DNA of 64,000 nucleotides from an archaeon (GTDB taxonomy: Archaea > Asgardarchaeota > Thorarchaeia > Thorarchaeales > Thorarchaeaceae). The stretch's first letter is position 1, and each line of letters starts with the position of its first letter. Below the pieces are notes generated by a model. It searched no databases and was not told where the DNA came from. It worked only from the letters and a program-made list of their open reading frames with translations. This document shows positions 39,561 to 46,490 of the stretch, piece by piece. The stretch is taken from NCBI GenBank assembly GCA_024276825.1, contig JAJRWI010000004.1:13723-77722 (forward strand), given 5' to 3'. The translations under genes were made by a program, and so were the position numbers.

Positions 39561-39700
39561 AGTAGAACGCTCCAGATAATTGGCTCCGGGTCAATCGCAA
39601 CTAATGTGAATGATTCTTAAGGCTTTGCGTTCATTGCAAAACTTCGACCATACCTCAAAGATTTAACTAGGATGGACACATTCAAAGATTGGTGCTAGAA

Positions 39701-40612
39701 ATGGCAAATTGCTCCCTCTGTGGTGCCGAAACCACTGCCTTCATTTGTCCCTACTGTAAAAGCGTGTTTTGCTTTGAACACAAATTGCCAGAGAGCCATG
39801 GATGTCCGGCATTTCAAATGACTCAGGCTCCAGGAATTATAGATAATGAAGAATATGAAGAGCCTGAGCCATCACGAGTTTCTCGCTTTCGGCCAAGAAA
39901 GAAGCAAATTCAGTCCCGGTCCATTCCATATCGCGGATCAAGAAGAAAGACTAGGTTTTCAGAAAGGGAGAAGAAAGACCTTTTAATTGCATCAATTCTT
40001 GTGATACTGGTCAGCATATCCATGATGGGCTTTGGTCGTGGAGGAATCATTAGTGCTATTGCCAGTCTTTATGTATTAGTTATGTCGGGCTTTTGGTGGG
40101 CTCCAGTCATCACCAGTTCTATCTTCCTCTTTTCGTTTATGGCACATGAGATGGCACACAAGTTTACGGCGCAGAAGTATGGAATGTGGAGCGAGTTTCG
40201 AATGACAGTTTCTGGCTATTATCTCTCTCTCATTGCGATTCTATTCTCATTTCCAATTTTTGGCACAGGTGCAGTATTCACTAGTGGGACTGCAAGTGAG
40301 GATGAAATTGCCAAGAGTAATCTTGCTGGCCCCCTCACGAATTTTGTGATAGCCTCGATTTTGTCTGTTGTGATCATATTAGCAGTAGGAGCCCTTGGAA
40401 GTCCCAGTTCAAGTTATGCATTGTATGTGTTCATTGCAATGGTGAACTTTGGAGTCATTCTAAATGGTTGGCTTGGTCTATTCAACATGATTCCTTTTCA
40501 GCCCTTTGATGGTGGTACCGTGTTCGCATGGAACAGAGTTGTATGGGCAGTACTAACAATTGGACTTGTATTTCTCATGATTCTGGGATATCTGATCTTT
40601 CCAGCGCTATAA
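39701..40612 (+). CDS. AN1-type zinc finger fused to an M50 (site-2) intramembrane metalloprotease
   Basis: CSLC..CPYC....CFEHKLPESHGC, then HEMAH, LAGP..N, FNMIPFQPFDG. Confidence 0.88.
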   Translation: MANCSLCGAETTAFICPYCKSVFCFEHKLPESHGCPAFQMTQAPGIIDNEEYEEPEPSRVSRFRPRKKQIQSRSIPYRGSRRKTRFSEREKKDLLIASILVILVSISMMGFGRGGIISAIASLYVLVMSGFWWAPVITSSIFLFSFMAHEMAHKFTAQKYGMWSEFRMTVSGYYLSLIAILFSFPIFGTGAVFTSGTASEDEIAKSNLAGPLTNFVIASILSVVIILAVGALGSPSSSYALYVFIAMVNFGVILNGWLGLFNMIPFQPFDGGTVFAWNRVVWAVLTIGLVFLMILGYLIFPAL

Positions 40613-40695: not shown

Positions 40696-42213
40696 TTGAT
40701 GCTAACCACTCACGACTCTCATGTCATCGAACTCTCCATTTCGGAATGGTTCTATCGAAATCGGAATATTGCGGGTTTTGATAATCCTGCAAGATCACTC
40801 TACGTTTCAATCAGAGAGATAGTTGAGAATGCATTGGACGCCTGCGAGTCAGCGGGAGTCCTACCAGGTGTAAGAGTGACTCTATCTCCTGCCTTTAGAC
40901 TGGACACTGAGATTGGAATTAACACGGGACCCCAGGTCTTCACTCTGACCGTCTCAGATAACGGTTCGGGAATAAAGCGGGACCATATTCCCAAGTTGAT
41001 TGGCAAAATGCTGTCTGGTACAAAGTTCCAGAATCAACAGAGTCGCGGCACTTTTGGTCTCGGTGGAAGTCTTGCATTACTCTATGGTCAGATCACCACT
41101 CAATCACCAATTGTTGTCAAGACGGGTTGTTCAGGCGAAGACTGCTATCATCATCTCTCATTGAAGCTAGACATCGAGAAAAACAAGCCACTCATCCTTG
41201 AAGAGACCATACATACAAAACCTATTCATGAACATGGAACAACAATCTCATTCAATCTTCGTGGCGACTGGTTCAGAAGTAAAAGAAGAATCATTGACTA
41301 TTTTCATCAGACCAGCATCATTGTGCCATATGCTTCAATTCGGTTTGACACTCCCGATGGTGAGAGCTTGAAGTTTCCAAGACTGGTAGAGCAGCTACCT
41401 CCAGCTCCGAGAGCAACCAAGCCCCACCCCCGCGGTATTGATGTGGAGATGCTGAAACAGATGATAAACACCACCAAGAGAAGCACATTATTGAAATTCA
41501 TGACCTCAAGTTTTCAGAGTATTGGGGTCTCAACAGCAAAGAAGTTCTTTGAATTTGCAAAGATTGATCCTGAGAGAGCTCCCAAGTCCCTGACATCTGA
41601 AGAACTGATCAATCTCATGGCTGCCTTTGAAATCTATGACAAGTTTAGGCCACCCTCCTCTCGTTCACTATCACCTGCGGGCGAAAAAGTCCTGAAGGCG
41701 GGTCTCACCAGAATCAGTCCCGAGTTCATTGTTGTCAGGCAGCGACCTCCGAATGTGCATGGTGGTCATCCATTCATAATTGAAGTTGGCGTTGCATATG
41801 GTGGTGGCATTAGTCCTGGAATCTGCTTACTCAGATTCGCCAACAGAATCCCACTACTCTATGATGAGCGGAATGATGTTGCCAACCGTGTAATTCGCGA
41901 ATTGAACTTGCGAAACTATGGGCTGAAGCAAGATGATCCCCTCACTTTCCTTGTTCATATCTGCAGCACTCGAATACCCTACAAGACAGTCGGCAAGGAG
42001 TTCATTGCAGATGTGGATGTGATTCGCAGAGAAATAGACCTTGGATTCAAAGACTGTCTTCGACGATTGGGTGACATGGTGAGAAGAAAGACAAGGACAA
42101 TGCGCGTGCGTGCACGTGAGAATCGACTTATGAAATACTACCAGTTTATTGCTGAAACTCTTGGAGAAGCGGTGAGTCGACCAGTAAGCATTGAGCGTCT
42201 GTTTGGAGAGTGA
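40696..42213 (+). CDS. top6B: DNA topoisomerase VI subunit B
   Basis: REIVENALDA, DNGSGI, SRGTFGLG, KPHP.G, H2TH domain, RFANRIPLLY, STRIPYKTVGKE. Confidence 0.92.
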   Translation: MMLTTHDSHVIELSISEWFYRNRNIAGFDNPARSLYVSIREIVENALDACESAGVLPGVRVTLSPAFRLDTEIGINTGPQVFTLTVSDNGSGIKRDHIPKLIGKMLSGTKFQNQQSRGTFGLGGSLALLYGQITTQSPIVVKTGCSGEDCYHHLSLKLDIEKNKPLILEETIHTKPIHEHGTTISFNLRGDWFRSKRRIIDYFHQTSIIVPYASIRFDTPDGESLKFPRLVEQLPPAPRATKPHPRGIDVEMLKQMINTTKRSTLLKFMTSSFQSIGVSTAKKFFEFAKIDPERAPKSLTSEELINLMAAFEIYDKFRPPSSRSLSPAGEKVLKAGLTRISPEFIVVRQRPPNVHGGHPFIIEVGVAYGGGISPGICLLRFANRIPLLYDERNDVANRVIRELNLRNYGLKQDDPLTFLVHICSTRIPYKTVGKEFIADVDVIRREIDLGFKDCLRRLGDMVRRKTRTMRVRARENRLMKYYQFIAETLGEAVSRPVSIERLFGE

Positions 42214-42217
42214 AACA

Positions 42218-43354
42218 ATGGCAGATTTCGGACTGAACAGAGAGGTGCTTGATCTAATAGATAATATATTGGAGACCTTGGCTGAAACAGTGGAGGATGG
42301 AGCATTCCCACAGATTGGTTATTATGGCTCTTCGAAAAAGAATGTGAAGTACTCTCCAGAAATGGGATACAAACACATTGACTCCGTGCCCTCCATCATC
42401 GACGGCAGAAAAGTGGAGAGTGCAAAGACGATTGCTGGACTTGTATACGGGATGACACGCTTCAAGGAGCATCTTGAGCAGGGCATGTCCATGTCATTAA
42501 GAGATTTTTATTATATGCACAAGGTCAAGCATGTTCAGGACATTCTGAAGATTTCTAATCAGAACGAAACAAATCGACTGATCAACCTCTGTGAGAGAAT
42601 TCTTAGGATACGTGGGAAATTTGTCCCACGCGAAGAATTTGGAGTTGTCAGTTCTCCCAAAGGTACGTTCTATGGTGATGTCACTCTACAAGATCTGTCA
42701 GGCAAGGTAATCAACTGCACAAGCACTGGCGAATATGGATGGTTCATCTCATCAAGACCGTTTGAGGTCAAGATTCACAATATCAACATTGATGCTGCCA
42801 TTTTTGTTGAGAAGGAAGCCATGGCACGAAACCTGATCGAACTTGGAATACCTGAAGAGCTCAAGGTTGGAGTCGGCGCTCTATTTGGCCAGCCAGGAAG
42901 AAACATGCGGGCTTGGATTCGCAGATTGGCCGATGAAGAAATTCCAATTCTTGTGCTTGTTGACATGTCCCCGTGGTCACTTAGAATATTCTCTACAATA
43001 AAGAGCAATTCAATCGAACTTGCCAATATCAGCGGTATTTCTACACCCGAGGCAAAACTAATCGGTCTAGCAACACAAGACTTCTGGGGGCGAAAAGGAC
43101 TTCTTAAGGACATCAATCACTCTCTTGAGGCCATGTCGAAGTCTGACATCAAGTGTGCGCAGCAAAACAAAAACATTCCTGCAATTGGTCAGGACCCAAT
43201 ACTCTCGCATGAGAATCAGGTCATGCTTAAGAATCGCAAGAAGGGCGAACTAGAGGCCTTCAAAGCATTTGGACTTCCTCTCGCAAAACTCAGACAGAAA
43301 TACATTGAATACATTATAATCAAGGCACGCGAAAATGATGTTTCACTAAAATAG
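42218..43354 (+). CDS. top6A: DNA topoisomerase VI subunit A (Spo11-like), divergent
   Basis: LRDFYY (catalytic Tyr), REEFGV, FVEKEA, GQP, KGELEA. The TOPRIM DxDP.G motif reads DMSPWS. Confidence 0.85.
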   Translation: MADFGLNREVLDLIDNILETLAETVEDGAFPQIGYYGSSKKNVKYSPEMGYKHIDSVPSIIDGRKVESAKTIAGLVYGMTRFKEHLEQGMSMSLRDFYYMHKVKHVQDILKISNQNETNRLINLCERILRIRGKFVPREEFGVVSSPKGTFYGDVTLQDLSGKVINCTSTGEYGWFISSRPFEVKIHNINIDAAIFVEKEAMARNLIELGIPEELKVGVGALFGQPGRNMRAWIRRLADEEIPILVLVDMSPWSLRIFSTIKSNSIELANISGISTPEAKLIGLATQDFWGRKGLLKDINHSLEAMSKSDIKCAQQNKNIPAIGQDPILSHENQVMLKNRKKGELEAFKAFGLPLAKLRQKYIEYIIIKARENDVSLK

Positions 43355-43414
43355 GAAAATGTGTTCATAAATTGTTATAAGTGAAAAAGCGCCTTGGCAT
43401 TTGAGGAGAGACAT

Positions 43415-44140
43415 ATGTCTGCAGAGAGAGAGCAACTAGTTACAGCCATGGATGACCTGAAGGAGAAGATTATCAAGCTGATTGATGAATGTGAACGACT
43501 GGAGAAAGAAAATGAAGAGTTACGCTCCGCCCGAAGAAAGGCTGAAGAAGAGGTCTGGGCTGTTAAAGAGGAATTGAAGACAAAGACCGAGGAGTTGCAG
43601 ACAGAACTTGATTCCGTCAACTCTCAACTTGAAGAGGCAAAGGGAACAATTGAAAGTCAGAAGTCTGAGATTGATGAGGCAACTAAAACAATAGAGTCAT
43701 TGAAGTCTGAAATTGAAACTCTCAAGTCGGAACTTGAAGAAGCAAAGAAGTCAAGCGAGTCAGCTTTTGAAGAGATTACGAGGGAACGCGACGAACTCAG
43801 GGCAGAGCTGGACGAGATCAACTCAAAATTGCAACGGGTTTCAGAGCTTTATCGTGAAACAGCTGCAGAGAAGGCAAAACTTGAGGAGAAAGTGGATGTC
43901 AGTGATCTCCTTGCAATCTATATCATGCTCATTGAAACGGTATTTTATGGAAAGCCGCATGCGCGAATTCTATATACACTTCACAATACCAAGAAACCAA
44001 TCACTCGCAGAAATATTGCATCAAGCACTGGCATTCAACCAGCAGTGGTACAGAAGGCTATCTTCGACCTTGTAAATGCTGGTCTGGTCAGCTATGATGA
44101 AGAAACGCAAGAGGCAAGACTAATCAAAGAAATAATGTAG
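43415..44140 (+). CDS. Long coiled-coil protein with C-terminal winged helix
   Basis: About 160 aa of heptad E/K-rich sequence, then ARILYTLH...TRRNIASSTGIQPAVVQKAIFDLVNAGLVSY. GAGGAG RBS. Confidence 0.75.
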   Translation: MSAEREQLVTAMDDLKEKIIKLIDECERLEKENEELRSARRKAEEEVWAVKEELKTKTEELQTELDSVNSQLEEAKGTIESQKSEIDEATKTIESLKSEIETLKSELEEAKKSSESAFEEITRERDELRAELDEINSKLQRVSELYRETAAEKAKLEEKVDVSDLLAIYIMLIETVFYGKPHARILYTLHNTKKPITRRNIASSTGIQPAVVQKAIFDLVNAGLVSYDEETQEARLIKEIM

Positions 44141-44158
44141 AACAAAGGAGAAAGTGTA

Positions 44159-45154
44159 TTGGGCAAAAGAGTTGTGTATCCTCCTGAATTGAAGAAATAT
44201 GTCCAGAAGTATAATCTGCAAGAAAAGATGAGGTCAATCCTCGGTCTTCTAGGAACCGAGGCTCAAGATATAGTGAACTGGGCTGCAAAAGAGGTAAAGG
44301 CAGAGTCCTCTAAAGGCAAGACTGATGTTGGAAGGAAAATCTTTCAGAAAATCGCTCGGGAAGCAGCAATCCGTCTAGTTCAGCAGAATCATCGGCGTGG
44401 CAAGATTACAACAAAGGCAGAGGTCAAAAAGAGGACAGGAATTCAAGTTGAGATGCCAGTCTTGTACAAAGATGCGGGTTTCAGGCATCCTCAAGAGGCT
44501 AGAAACCTACGACACAATATCTTTCACCAAGCCTTCCTTGCTCTCGTCATGACATACTTTCCTGATGTCCACACATGGGTGCCAGTGACAGGGCAGGGTT
44601 CACTCACTCCTGACTTGATTGTTGAACACGAAGATCCCAAATGGACGATTGCTGTTGAATACAAGGGCTATCGAAATGTGACCCTTTTGAGTGAATCTGA
44701 AATTCTGAAAGGAATGCGATATCAAAAAGTGTATGGTACAGCATGGCTAGTCACTTCAACAGAGAAGAGTGTTCATAGATTGTATGGCCGATCACTGAAT
44801 TCTGAGAGTCTAATAGATCAAGGAATTGAACGTCTTCAGCGCATTCTGAAAAAGAAGGCTTATACTTCTGAGCAAAAGGAGAATAGGGGAATTGCAAGAA
44901 AGGGACTGAAGCATCTTGAAAAGCACAGGGGTATTAACATACGATGCAAGATGATTTCTGCTGAAGAATTGATAGAATCATGTCGAAATGGCCGCCCCCT
45001 TAAGGGTCTAGCAATCACTACGGGCATGGAATTGGTAGAAATGCTCCGTGGGGCTGGTCTTGATGAGCATGCTGACAACATCTTACGTGTGATGAAGTCT
45101 CCAACTCGATTAGTCCACAGCGAGAGTGTTACTTCTATGCGTTTGATTGAATGA
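44159..45154 (+). CDS. PD-(D/E)xK superfamily nuclease-like protein
   Basis: TPDLIVEHEDPKWTIAVEYKG...EILKGMRY...AWLVT; basic protein. Confidence 0.6.
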   Translation: MGKRVVYPPELKKYVQKYNLQEKMRSILGLLGTEAQDIVNWAAKEVKAESSKGKTDVGRKIFQKIAREAAIRLVQQNHRRGKITTKAEVKKRTGIQVEMPVLYKDAGFRHPQEARNLRHNIFHQAFLALVMTYFPDVHTWVPVTGQGSLTPDLIVEHEDPKWTIAVEYKGYRNVTLLSESEILKGMRYQKVYGTAWLVTSTEKSVHRLYGRSLNSESLIDQGIERLQRILKKKAYTSEQKENRGIARKGLKHLEKHRGINIRCKMISAEELIESCRNGRPLKGLAITTGMELVEMLRGAGLDEHADNILRVMKSPTRLVHSESVTSMRLIE

Positions 45155-45272
45155 AAACCTCGAATCATTAAGTAACACAAGACTTGATAGCAAGTTATTC
45201 AAAGGATACTTGATATGCTTACATGCAACAGGCTTAAGTAAAGCTCTTATAAGAAAAGCAGGGGTTTCAACC

Positions 45273-45665
45273 TTGATACAGGATGAGAATGACGAACTCC
45301 AAGGGCAGTTGAAGAGACTCCTCACCGAGTTTGCAAATAACACTCCTATTCTTGGAGCTGCAATTCTTTCTGTTGAAGGCCTGCCTTTGGTCAGTAATTT
45401 TCAAGCGGGCACGGAAGAAGTGGCTGTTGCTGCAATGGTTGCTGGGATTCATTCCGCCAGTGAGCAAGCTGTACAGGAGCTTCGTCAGGGAAACCTCAAG
45501 TCAATAATTATTGAGGGCGATCAAGGGACCATTGTAATCATATCAATTCGCGGTGGCTATTTACTGGCAATCACTTCTCCTGAAAATGTACGACTTGGGC
45601 TGGTCTTTAACGATGGAAAGCGCGTTGCCCGTAATGCAGCAAAGATCCTACTAAACATTGGTTGA
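45273..45665 (+). CDS. Roadblock/LC7 domain protein
   Basis: ILGAAILSVEGLPLVS, VAAMVA, QELRQG.L..IIIEG..G, RLGLVF. Start probably TTG 45273 after a TATA-like CTTATAAG. Confidence 0.88.
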   Translation: MIQDENDELQGQLKRLLTEFANNTPILGAAILSVEGLPLVSNFQAGTEEVAVAAMVAGIHSASEQAVQELRQGNLKSIIIEGDQGTIVIISIRGGYLLAITSPENVRLGLVFNDGKRVARNAAKILLNIG

Positions 45666-45674
45666 GATGCAATC

Positions 45675-46490
45675 ATGAGATATCCCTTTGATTTTCACCC
45701 CTGCTGGGCTAAAGACAGACGTCATCTGTGGGAGCGCATTCATCTTCCAGTTGCGCCCAAATGCAATGCAAAATGCTTCTTCTGTGACCATAATGTTGGT
45801 GCCTCTTGCCATTTTCCAAAGCCTGGCAGAGCAAACAGGGTAATGACCGTTGATGAAGCTATTACTGTTTTGAAACGCGAGTTGTCAAGCAGGCCAAATC
45901 TTCGAATAGTTGCGGTTTCGGGTCCTGGCGAACCTCTATACAATCCAGAGTTCTATGAATTAATGAAAGCAGTTAAGGAGATAGACGCTGAGCTCAAACT
46001 TTGCACCAGCACAAATGGCATCTTACTACATAATGCAATCGAAAGTCTACTGGATCTTGGTATTTCAACAGTGTCCATATCGGTTCATACTCTGTCAATC
46101 GATACCGCACAGAGTATTTATGAATGGGCCATAATTGATGGTGTGCGGCTTTCAGGTGTGGAAATGGCTCATGAGCTTATAAGGAAGCAAAGACAGGGAA
46201 TATCTGCAGCTGTGGACTCTGGAATCCATGTTAAGGTGAATACTATTTTAATTCCTGGCGTGAATAATGATCAGATGGCACATATTGCTTCTGAACTGTC
46301 GGGAATGGGTGTGAGATTACAAAACATTGTACCCCTTGTCCCACTTGGGAATTGTACACCTGGCCGACCAACCCATGATGAACTAATGGCAGCACGATTG
46401 AGTGCATCTCATCACATTAAACAGTTCTATCATTGCAAGCAATGTAGAAGTGATGTTGTAGGAATTCCTGGAAATGATGTCATTCTTTAG
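45675..46490 (+). CDS. NifB-like radical SAM protein (no NifX domain)
   Basis: HPC, RIHLPVAPKCNAKCFFC, SGPGEPL, CTSTNG, KVNTILIPGVN, HCKQCRSD. Confidence 0.85.
   Translation: MRYPFDFHPCWAKDRRHLWERIHLPVAPKCNAKCFFCDHNVGASCHFPKPGRANRVMTVDEAITVLKRELSSRPNLRIVAVSGPGEPLYNPEFYELMKAVKEIDAELKLCTSTNGILLHNAIESLLDLGISTVSISVHTLSIDTAQSIYEWAIIDGVRLSGVEMAHELIRKQRQGISAAVDSGIHVKVNTILIPGVNNDQMAHIASELSGMGVRLQNIVPLVPLGNCTPGRPTHDELMAARLSASHHIKQFYHCKQCRSDVVGIPGNDVIL

Follow-up and report, generated by a model that had tools for sequence, protein, structure and literature searches.

A third topoisomerase VI pair in a Thorarchaeial genome belongs to a divergent archaeal lineage lacking the second Asp of the TOPRIM DxD motif

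We analyzed two adjoining genes, top6B and top6A, which encode the subunits of a divergent topoisomerase VI (Topo VI), in a 64,000-nucleotide stretch of a Thorarchaeial genome (GenBank assembly GCA_024276825.1, contig JAJRWI010000004.1, positions 13,723 to 77,722; hereafter the window). The pair is probably a complete and catalytically competent type IIB enzyme of an archaeal lineage in which Ser or Asn occupies the second position of the TOPRIM DxD motif (Dx[S/N]), and Thorarchaeia carry it as a dispensable third copy. An earlier note on this DNA, made from the sequence alone, had called the motif broken. This description was not supported, as the same clade provides the only Top6A found in Atabeyarchaeia and Korarchaeia.

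Results

The gene pair

Both genes are intact open reading frames (ORFs) on the same strand, located where the earlier note had placed them, in a window with a GC content of about 44%.

40696..42213, + strand: top6B, third copy; GHKL ATPase, H2TH and transducer domains, 505 amino acids (NF003218 score; end-to-end alignment with Saccharolobus shibatae)
42191..43354, + strand: top6A, third copy; 5Y-CAP/winged-helix (WH) and TOPRIM domains, 387 amino acids from TTG (PF04406 and PF21180; fold model)

Top6A residues are numbered here from the TTG codon at 42191. The Top6A protein in the database starts at the ATG codon at 42218 (residue 10), 4 bases past the top6B stop codon, and this ATG is probably the true start. 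Top6B scored 549 bits with the NCBIfam model NF003218 (cut-off 274) and 436 bits with TIGR01052 (cut-off 380.7), and its transducer matched PF09239 with an E-value of 9e-50. Residues 12–469 aligned with S. shibatae Top6B (E-value 1.5e-113), and the alignment was continuous across the H2TH region of 1MX0, showing that this domain is present. Top6A exceeded the Pfam cut-offs of PF21180 (82.7 versus 24.1) and PF04406 (27.6 versus 26). The AlphaFold2 model of Top6A was predicted with high confidence (predicted local distance difference test, 95.2; predicted template modeling score, 0.91), and its top Foldseek matches were all Top6A chains. The best was Methanosarcina mazei 9o0g_C (template modeling scores 0.81/0.86), followed by the Top6A proteins of S. 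shibatae and Methanocaldococcus jannaschii, with Spo11 more distant (0.58).

The active site of Top6A

The catalytic elements of Top6A were located by alignment, in which positions were compared with M. mazei Top6A and with a 122-sequence alignment of diverse Top6A/Spo11 representatives.

42500..42514, + strand: RDFYY, containing the clasp residue Arg104 and the catalytic Tyr108 (M. mazei R102 and Y106; invariant in 122/122)
42806..42814, + strand: VEK, containing the TOPRIM residue Glu207, a site A metal ligand (M. mazei E202; invariant in 122/122)
42962..42979, + strand: DMSPWS, with Asp258 kept (M. mazei D254) and Ser260 in place of the second DxD Asp (M. mazei D256)
43238..43261, + strand: KKGELEAF, containing Glu353 (M. 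mazei E342), the fourth acidic residue and clasp partner of Arg104 (clade-invariant in the alignment; for the role of E342, see PMC13040014)

The M. mazei alignment agrees with the earlier note, which had read the Tyr (RDFYY) and the Glu (VEK) as kept and DMSPWS as standing for DxDPxG. The motif is encoded by gac atg tcc ccg tgg tca, with the Ser260 codon TCC at 42968–42970, at least two base changes away from an Asp codon (GAY). In the 122-sequence alignment, the second Asp position holds Asp in 103 sequences, Asn in 10, and Ser in 9; the Arg, the Tyr, the Glu, and the first Asp are invariant. The deviation is real, rare, and not due to chance. That it goes beyond a simple error, as the earlier note had argued, was confirmed by the conservation of DxS throughout the clade described below.

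We then examined the 27 columns that are conserved in at least 80% of the other Top6A/Spo11 sequences. The clade retains 22 of them, including R104, Y108, Q124, R147, E207, D258, and K351/E353; the changed columns are R47, A200, D260, G263, and G273. Four clade-specific invariant polar residues, N326, N342, E313, and R265, occupy hydrophobic or variable positions, with Asn326 and Asn342 standing where other Top6A proteins have hydrophobic residues. Among the clade-specific Asp and Glu residues, only E313 stood out as a candidate acidic residue compensating for Ser260.

The earlier note had also stated that both Asp residues bind the catalytic Mg. Published structures place the second Asp elsewhere: in the cryo-electron microscopy structure of Spo11, the Glu and the first Asp form the catalytic metal site A, and the second Asp forms the structural site B (PMC11746154). 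In the same work, the second Asp is termed 'mostly but not strictly conserved' and 'dispensable for DSB formation' (DSB, double-strand break), and in yeast Spo11 the D290N substitution had little effect and D290A caused partial loss (PMC11746154). The D256 carboxylate of the M. mazei cleavage complex lies about 4 Å from the metal, beyond inner-shell contact and at an outer-shell distance (PMC13040014), and plant SPO11-2 always has DxN, yet forms breaks (PMC11302465). Given the site assignment, the D256 distance, the D290N phenotype, and SPO11-2, the premise that both Asp residues bind the catalytic Mg is too strong.

A monophyletic clade with Dx[S/N]

All 120 homologues among the matches listed carry D[ML]SPWS (72–77% identity; nearly all labelled Thorarchaeota), and an exhaustive search of 50%-identity cluster representatives yielded only three further relatives above the generic Top6A background:

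Korarchaeota: DLSPWS
Brockarchaeota/Thermoproteota: DLNPYS
Methanocella paludicola (WP_231845116.1): DLSPWS

A scan of species-representative genomes returned 80 loci, comprising about 58 in Thorarchaeia, 3 in Atabeyarchaeia, and about 19 in Korarchaeia and other Thermoproteota. Their motifs were DMSPWS (50), DLSPWS (22), DFSPWS (5), and DLNPYS (3), and none was DxD. The catalytic Tyr and the TOPRIM Glu were retained at all 80 loci, and stops or frameshifts were found at none. DxS is therefore not private to this assembly; a private DxS would, according to the earlier note, have counted against its reading.

In an IQ-TREE phylogeny of 104 sequences, the Dx[S/N] proteins of Thorarchaeia, Atabeyarchaeia, Korarchaeia, Brockarchaeota-like Thermoproteota, and Methanocella formed a monophyletic clade (Shimodaira–Hasegawa-like approximate likelihood ratio test, 100), and thus a single change suffices. 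The clade was placed among archaeal-type Top6A, close to the second Top6A copy of the window genome, and supported branches separated it from a group containing the first copy together with six DxN sequences, most likely those of eukaryotic SPO11-2 proteins. As this DxN group lies apart from the archaeal clade, the change is independent in the two. The similarity of Top6B to the window copy decreased from Thorarchaeia through Atabeyarchaeia and Korarchaeia to copy 2 and then copy 1 of the same genome. This order is the same as that for Top6A, indicating that the two subunits were inherited together. Moreover, top6B lies directly upstream of top6A in each lineage, with the genes overlapping or abutting.

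Sole-copy status outside Thorarchaeia

Topo VI is regarded as the ancestral, near-universal type II topoisomerase of archaea, replaced only by gyrase in Thermoplasmatales (PMC9348778). Two chromosomes of Atabeyarchaeia, Atabeyarchaeia-1 (CP147779.1, G036) and Ca. Atabeyarchaeum deiterrae (CP147780.1, G073), are complete, curated, and circular (PMC11529989). These two chromosomes and one metagenome-assembled genome (MAG) of the same class each gave one Top6A TOPRIM match even at E ≤ 10, one TP6A_N match, and one Top6B match. The lone Top6A in all three is DLSPWS, and a domain search for GyrA/ParC in these genomes returned none. Since the sole type II topoisomerase found in complete genomes is of this type, the Dx[S/N] enzyme would have to work there.

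Similar results were obtained for five of five Korarchaeia genomes checked, including Ca. Methanodesulfokora washburnensis and a Korarchaeum sp., for which completeness figures are lacking: each has a single Top6A, which belongs to the divergent type, and GyrA was found in none of the five. In three Brockarchaeota-like MAGs, likewise without completeness figures, the DxN form was the sole Top6A and no GyrA-type enzyme was found; their relatives have both forms or the canonical form only.

Three Topo VI pairs in the window genome

The whole 2.94-Mb assembly (98% complete, 1.8% contamination) was searched with Pfam profiles. Three Top6A TOPRIM domains and three Top6B transducers were detected, paired side by side, and no GyrA/ParC domain was found in this search. 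Pair 1 (contig 63) has a long Top6A with an N-terminal arm of helix-hairpin-helix repeats and the motif DSDPYG; pair 2 (contig 45) has a short canonical Top6A with DGDPWG; pair 3 (contig 49) is the window pair, with DMSPWS. The pair is thus an extra paralogue beside canonical top6AB, as the earlier note had supposed. The third Top6A shares just 22–28% identity with the two other copies. All three pairs lie on a single 1.55-Mb contig in one relative (G021), and copies 1 and 3 both lie on the single chromosome record of another (G001), which rules out a binning or assembly artefact.

Across 24 Thorarchaeial genomes of the same family, the DxS copy was whole or split in 16 and a fragment in 1; it was not found in the remaining 7, which are 87–97% complete. 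Five of these seven retain the neighbourhood, with the M50/zf-AN1 gene followed directly by the coiled-coil gene, that is, a clean two-gene absence. Copy-2 Top6A was not found in two of the 24 genomes (G001 and G016), both of which carry copy 3. None of the 24 genomes lacked copy 2 and copy 3 together, but the numbers are too small for a test. Identities to the window genome across the family were as follows:

Pair 1: Top6A 80–89%, Top6B 70–81%
Pair 2: Top6A 62–71%, Top6B 46–51%
Pair 3: Top6A 72–77%, Top6B 57–63%

A neighbouring CDC48 ATPase is 72–75% identical across the family, about the same as Top6A of pair 3. Judged from these sequences, pair 3 appears more constrained than canonical pair 2 and less constrained than pair 1.

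Several features of the other two pairs were also observed. The copy-1 genes lie on contig 63 (L001:1480-3357 and L005:1249-3297). Copy-1 Top6A is at least 625 amino acids long, with the arm of helix-hairpin-helix repeats being lysine-rich, and the associated Top6B is about 682–694 amino acids. Copy 1 is present in 24/24 family members (80–89% identity) and groups with the eukaryote-like clade in the tree. In two same-genus Thorarchaeial genomes, copy-1 Top6B has one in-frame TAG in an otherwise full-length match of 75–76% identity (G003:C5:163506-165440 and G018:C7:21660-23591), for which sequencing error, a pseudogene, or recoding are possible causes. The Thorarchaeote chromosome CP070761.1 contains a copy-2 Top6B (G001:C1:1273748-1275091; 49% identity, open frame of 503 amino acids). 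Copy-2 Top6A was not found in this chromosome with either query, which may reflect an orphan B subunit or a local loss.

Top6B motifs

The Top6B motifs were assigned by alignment with S. shibatae Top6B and with orthologues.

40825..40842, + strand: N-box ENALDA, with the general base Glu44 and the Mg-binding Asn48 (S. shibatae ENSLDA; kept in all orthologues examined)
40957..41067, + strand: G1 box DNGSGI, ATP-lid Lys, and G2 box RGTFGLGG (alignment to S. shibatae motifs)
41908..41919, + strand: LRNY at the WKxY position (orthologue alignment)
41980..42000, + strand: transducer switch-lysine loop YKTVGKE (S. shibatae YKSAGKE, holding K427)

The ATPase motifs and the switch Lys are retained in every Top6B orthologue examined. 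As the earlier note had read, the GHKL motifs and the transducer Lys are kept and WxxY appears as LRNY. WKxY is a DNA-contact element of Top6B, and the M. mazei enzyme requires its contacts to relax supercoils. At this element, the window Top6B has Leu in place of Trp and retains the basic residue and the Tyr. The same Trp-to-Leu change was found in 10/10 Thorarchaeial orthologues, with Lys or Arg at the next position in nine and Thr in one. Elsewhere in the clade, the element reads WRRY (Atabeyarchaeia), WSTY (Korarchaeia), and WKNY or WRNY (Brockarchaeota-like MAGs).

Comparison with known systems

Compared with canonical archaeal Topo VI (M. mazei 2Q2E/9O0G, S. shibatae 2ZBK, and M. jannaschii Top6A 1D3Y), the window pair has the same B–A gene arrangement and domain order. 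It shares the catalytic Tyr and Arg, the TOPRIM Glu, the first Asp, and the clasp Glu, as well as the GHKL motifs, H2TH, the switch Lys, and the predicted Top6A fold. In contrast, its Top6A is only 24–28% identical to canonical Top6A, with the second DxD Asp and G263 both replaced with Ser, R47 lost, and A200 changed to Ile, and the Thorarchaeial Top6B has LRNY instead of WKxY.

Plant and protist SPO11-2 (DxN) and yeast spo11-D290N/A carry substitutions at the identical TOPRIM position, and cleavage is retained there (PMC11302465, PMC11746154). SPO11-2 and Spo11 are eukaryotic meiotic break-formers on a separate branch with degenerate B-like partners, whereas the window Top6B is fully intact. 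An origin in the Spo11/TopoVI-like meiotic lineage was rejected on these grounds, together with the position of the clade among archaeal-type Top6A and apart from the copy-1/DxN group. The tree puts the clade among ordinary archaeal Top6A and away from the Asgard-conserved, eukaryote-like one.

According to the main text of a recent study (Nat Ecol Evol 2025, PMC12680538), various Asgard clades have a second Top6A/Top6B copy and Thorarchaeia a third, kin to those of other archaea and not of eukaryotes, and one Top6A is conserved across Asgard. The window pair is one of these extra copies, with which our tree placement agrees. The main text of that study does not mention the DxD change. Relative to the Asgard-wide Top6A described in it, Atabeyarchaeia yielded no Top6A other than the DxS type, and beyond what that text covers, this type also occurs in Korarchaeia, Brockarchaeota-like MAGs, and Methanocella.

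Two further kinds of unusual Top6A were encountered. Asgard genomes of one genus, likely Odinarchaeum and 1.3–1.4 Mb in size, have a second Top6A-like ORF of about 332 amino acids that scores about 82 bits on PF21180 (G026:C1:678747-679181, G037:C1:567489-567938, and G079:C11:33103-33549), and a search with the window Top6A gave no match to it at E ≤ 1e-5. About 16 Top6A cluster representatives of about 570–920 amino acids (P0143, P0146, P0163, P0164, P0170, P0173, P0175, P0188, P0193, P0196, and others) align to the Top6A profile in two separate segments, an N-terminal WH part and a C-terminal TOPRIM part; the large insert of about 450–500 amino acids between them could be an intein or an inserted domain.

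Genomic neighbourhood

Upstream of top6B lies a gene (39689–40612, + strand) whose product joins an AN1-type zinc finger to a membrane domain of the M50 (site-2 protease-like) type and is 45–55% identical in all Thorarchaeial relatives examined. Downstream of top6A, tightly packed genes occupy 43394–46490 (+ strand), with gaps of −8 to 40 bp:

43394–44140, + strand: coiled-coil protein with a C-terminal winged-helix domain
44159–45154, + strand: 331-amino-acid protein of unknown family
45147–45665, + strand: Roadblock/LC7 protein
45675–46490, + strand: radical SAM enzyme

The 331-amino-acid protein had no PDB sequence match at E ≤ 10, and its sole Pfam match, DUF6227, was under the cut-off; by eye, it shows a possible PD-(D/E)xK pattern (PDL...EYK). 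The downstream gene order is common to 10 Thorarchaeial genomes and persists with or without the Topo VI pair. A functional link to the downstream genes was rejected, given the intact neighbourhood in five genomes lacking the pair and the other neighbours found in Atabeyarchaeia, Korarchaeia, Brockarchaeota-like MAGs, and Methanocella. PADLOC returned 0 matches for both subunits, and their GC content is like that of the surroundings, which excluded a defence-system or mobile-element origin; the JetC/LmuB matches of the coiled-coil protein are generic coiled-coil matches. Topo VIII and Mini-A were likewise excluded, as B and A are encoded by separate genes that have conserved chromosomal surroundings and no PADLOC match.

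Discussion

Our results suggest that the window pair would function as an A2B2 enzyme performing ATP-driven strand passage through a Tyr108 phosphotyrosyl intermediate. The site A ligands Glu207 and Asp258, the Arg104–Glu353 clasp, and the ATPase apparatus of Top6B are all intact, and the only altered ligand is that of the non-catalytic site-B metal, a change that took place once, in the common ancestor of these proteins. The Dx[S/N] enzyme would be a housekeeping enzyme in Atabeyarchaeia and Korarchaeia, where no other type II topoisomerase was found. Thorarchaeia keep it as a third copy beside two canonical pairs, with a function probably overlapping that of the archaeal-type pair 2. The integrity of the genes, the residue pattern, the clade, its distribution, and the sole-copy status are shown by the sequences; catalysis itself and the role in Thorarchaeia are what we infer from them.

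Several points weigh against this interpretation. Ser binds metals less well than Asp or Asn do, and the cleavage/religation balance or the metal preference of the DxS enzyme may be altered. The stem of the clade is long (1.06 substitutions per site). Top6A falls below every NCBIfam equivalog cut-off (best, 262 bits versus 424), which is why most orthologues are named 'hypothetical protein' at NCBI/GenBank. The sole-copy counts rest in part on the Korarchaeia and Brockarchaeota-like genomes without completeness figures, and Topo VIII or Mini-A might escape PF21180 in such counts. Finally, the absence of pair 3 from 7/24 family members marks it as dispensable in Thorarchaeia, and Thorarchaeial Top6B has Leu for Trp in a DNA-contact element; as this replacement is confined to Thorarchaeia, it leaves some room for specialisation.

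One alternative takes up this room. The Thorarchaeial pair could be a sub- or neo-functionalised paralogue that still cuts DNA and acts as a weaker relaxase, a dedicated decatenase, a cleavage-prone or regulated break-former, or an enzyme with other metal use, owing to the site-B change together with the Trp-to-Leu change in WKxY. Two other Topo VI pairs in the cell would leave the dispensable pair 3 free to specialise. L[KRT]xY is found in 10/10 Thorarchaeial Top6B proteins, and the Trp, whose element makes contacts that M. mazei needs for supercoil relaxation, is kept in the sole-copy Atabeyarchaeia and Korarchaeia; the clade-specific polar residues N326, N342, E313, and R265 point the same way. 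Nevertheless, DxS is older than Thorarchaeia and compatible with sole-copy housekeeping, the replacement of Trp by Leu is conservative and leaves the basic residue as Lys or Arg, all ATPase and cleavage residues are present, conservation is like that of the canonical pairs, and the pair has no tie to the genes beside it. We therefore consider this alternative unlikely.

It is very unlikely that the DxS Top6A is half of a heterodimer with a canonical Top6A, as plant SPO11-1 is with the DxN protein SPO11-2. That plant precedent for a partner without the second Asp, the presence of three Top6A proteins in one cell, and the fact that every searched genome has copy 2 or copy 3 would fit such an arrangement. 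However, the DxS Top6A has its own co-inherited Top6B, encoded by an overlapping or abutting gene in every lineage, the clade stands alone in Atabeyarchaeia and Korarchaeia, identity to the other two copies is only 22–28%, and genomes with copy 3 but not copy 2 exist, as does the reverse. A pseudo-enzyme that does not cut, serving as a DNA clamp or regulator, or a decaying gene, is hardly credible. The loss of one classic TOPRIM acidic residue, the NCBIfam score under the cut-off, and the loss of the pair from some genomes would be expected of it, but the Tyr, the Arg, the Glu, the first Asp, and the clasp Glu are invariant, Top6A identity is 72–77% across genera, and in complete genomes of other archaea no Top6A besides this one was found. 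Decay in particular was rejected by the 80 loci free of stops and frameshifts.

Taken together, these considerations favour a competent Topo VI of the Dx[S/N] lineage. Of the earlier proposal of a specialised paralogue instead of the housekeeping decatenase, the paralogue stands, and a role as a clamp, nickase, or break-former is not supported. A specialised non-topoisomerase function is not supported, and sub-specialisation within Thorarchaeia is possible. Tentatively, and as a scenario we would not yet expect to hold in full, the clade may be a natural type IIB lineage without the site-B carboxylate that is the only type II enzyme of whole archaeal classes (Korarchaeia and Atabeyarchaeia). 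Thorarchaeia may have acquired or retained it as their third enzyme, and it may have begun to specialise there through altered sensing of DNA arms by LKxY; it could, for instance, be turning into a dedicated decatenase, or its metal preference or cleavage/religation balance could have shifted. In that case, the lineage would provide a natural experiment for studying the two-metal mechanism of type IIB enzymes and the division of labour among paralogous Topo VI in the closest relatives of eukaryotes.

Multi-copy Topo VI in Asgard has already been published; for the clade-wide Dx[S/N] signature and the sole-copy status, no description was found in the literature searched. Since the cultured methanogen Methanocella paludicola holds a member of the clade (WP_231845116.1), experiments are feasible. 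The apparent defect in a catalytic motif is a lineage-wide functional state, as far as sequence and distribution indicate, and Top6A proteins with DxS or DxN should not be annotated as dead. In Thorarchaeia, the third pair is dispensable, resembles the Korarchaeia/Atabeyarchaeia type, and is unrelated to the origin of Spo11; these details extend what has been published on the several Topo VI pairs of Asgard archaea.

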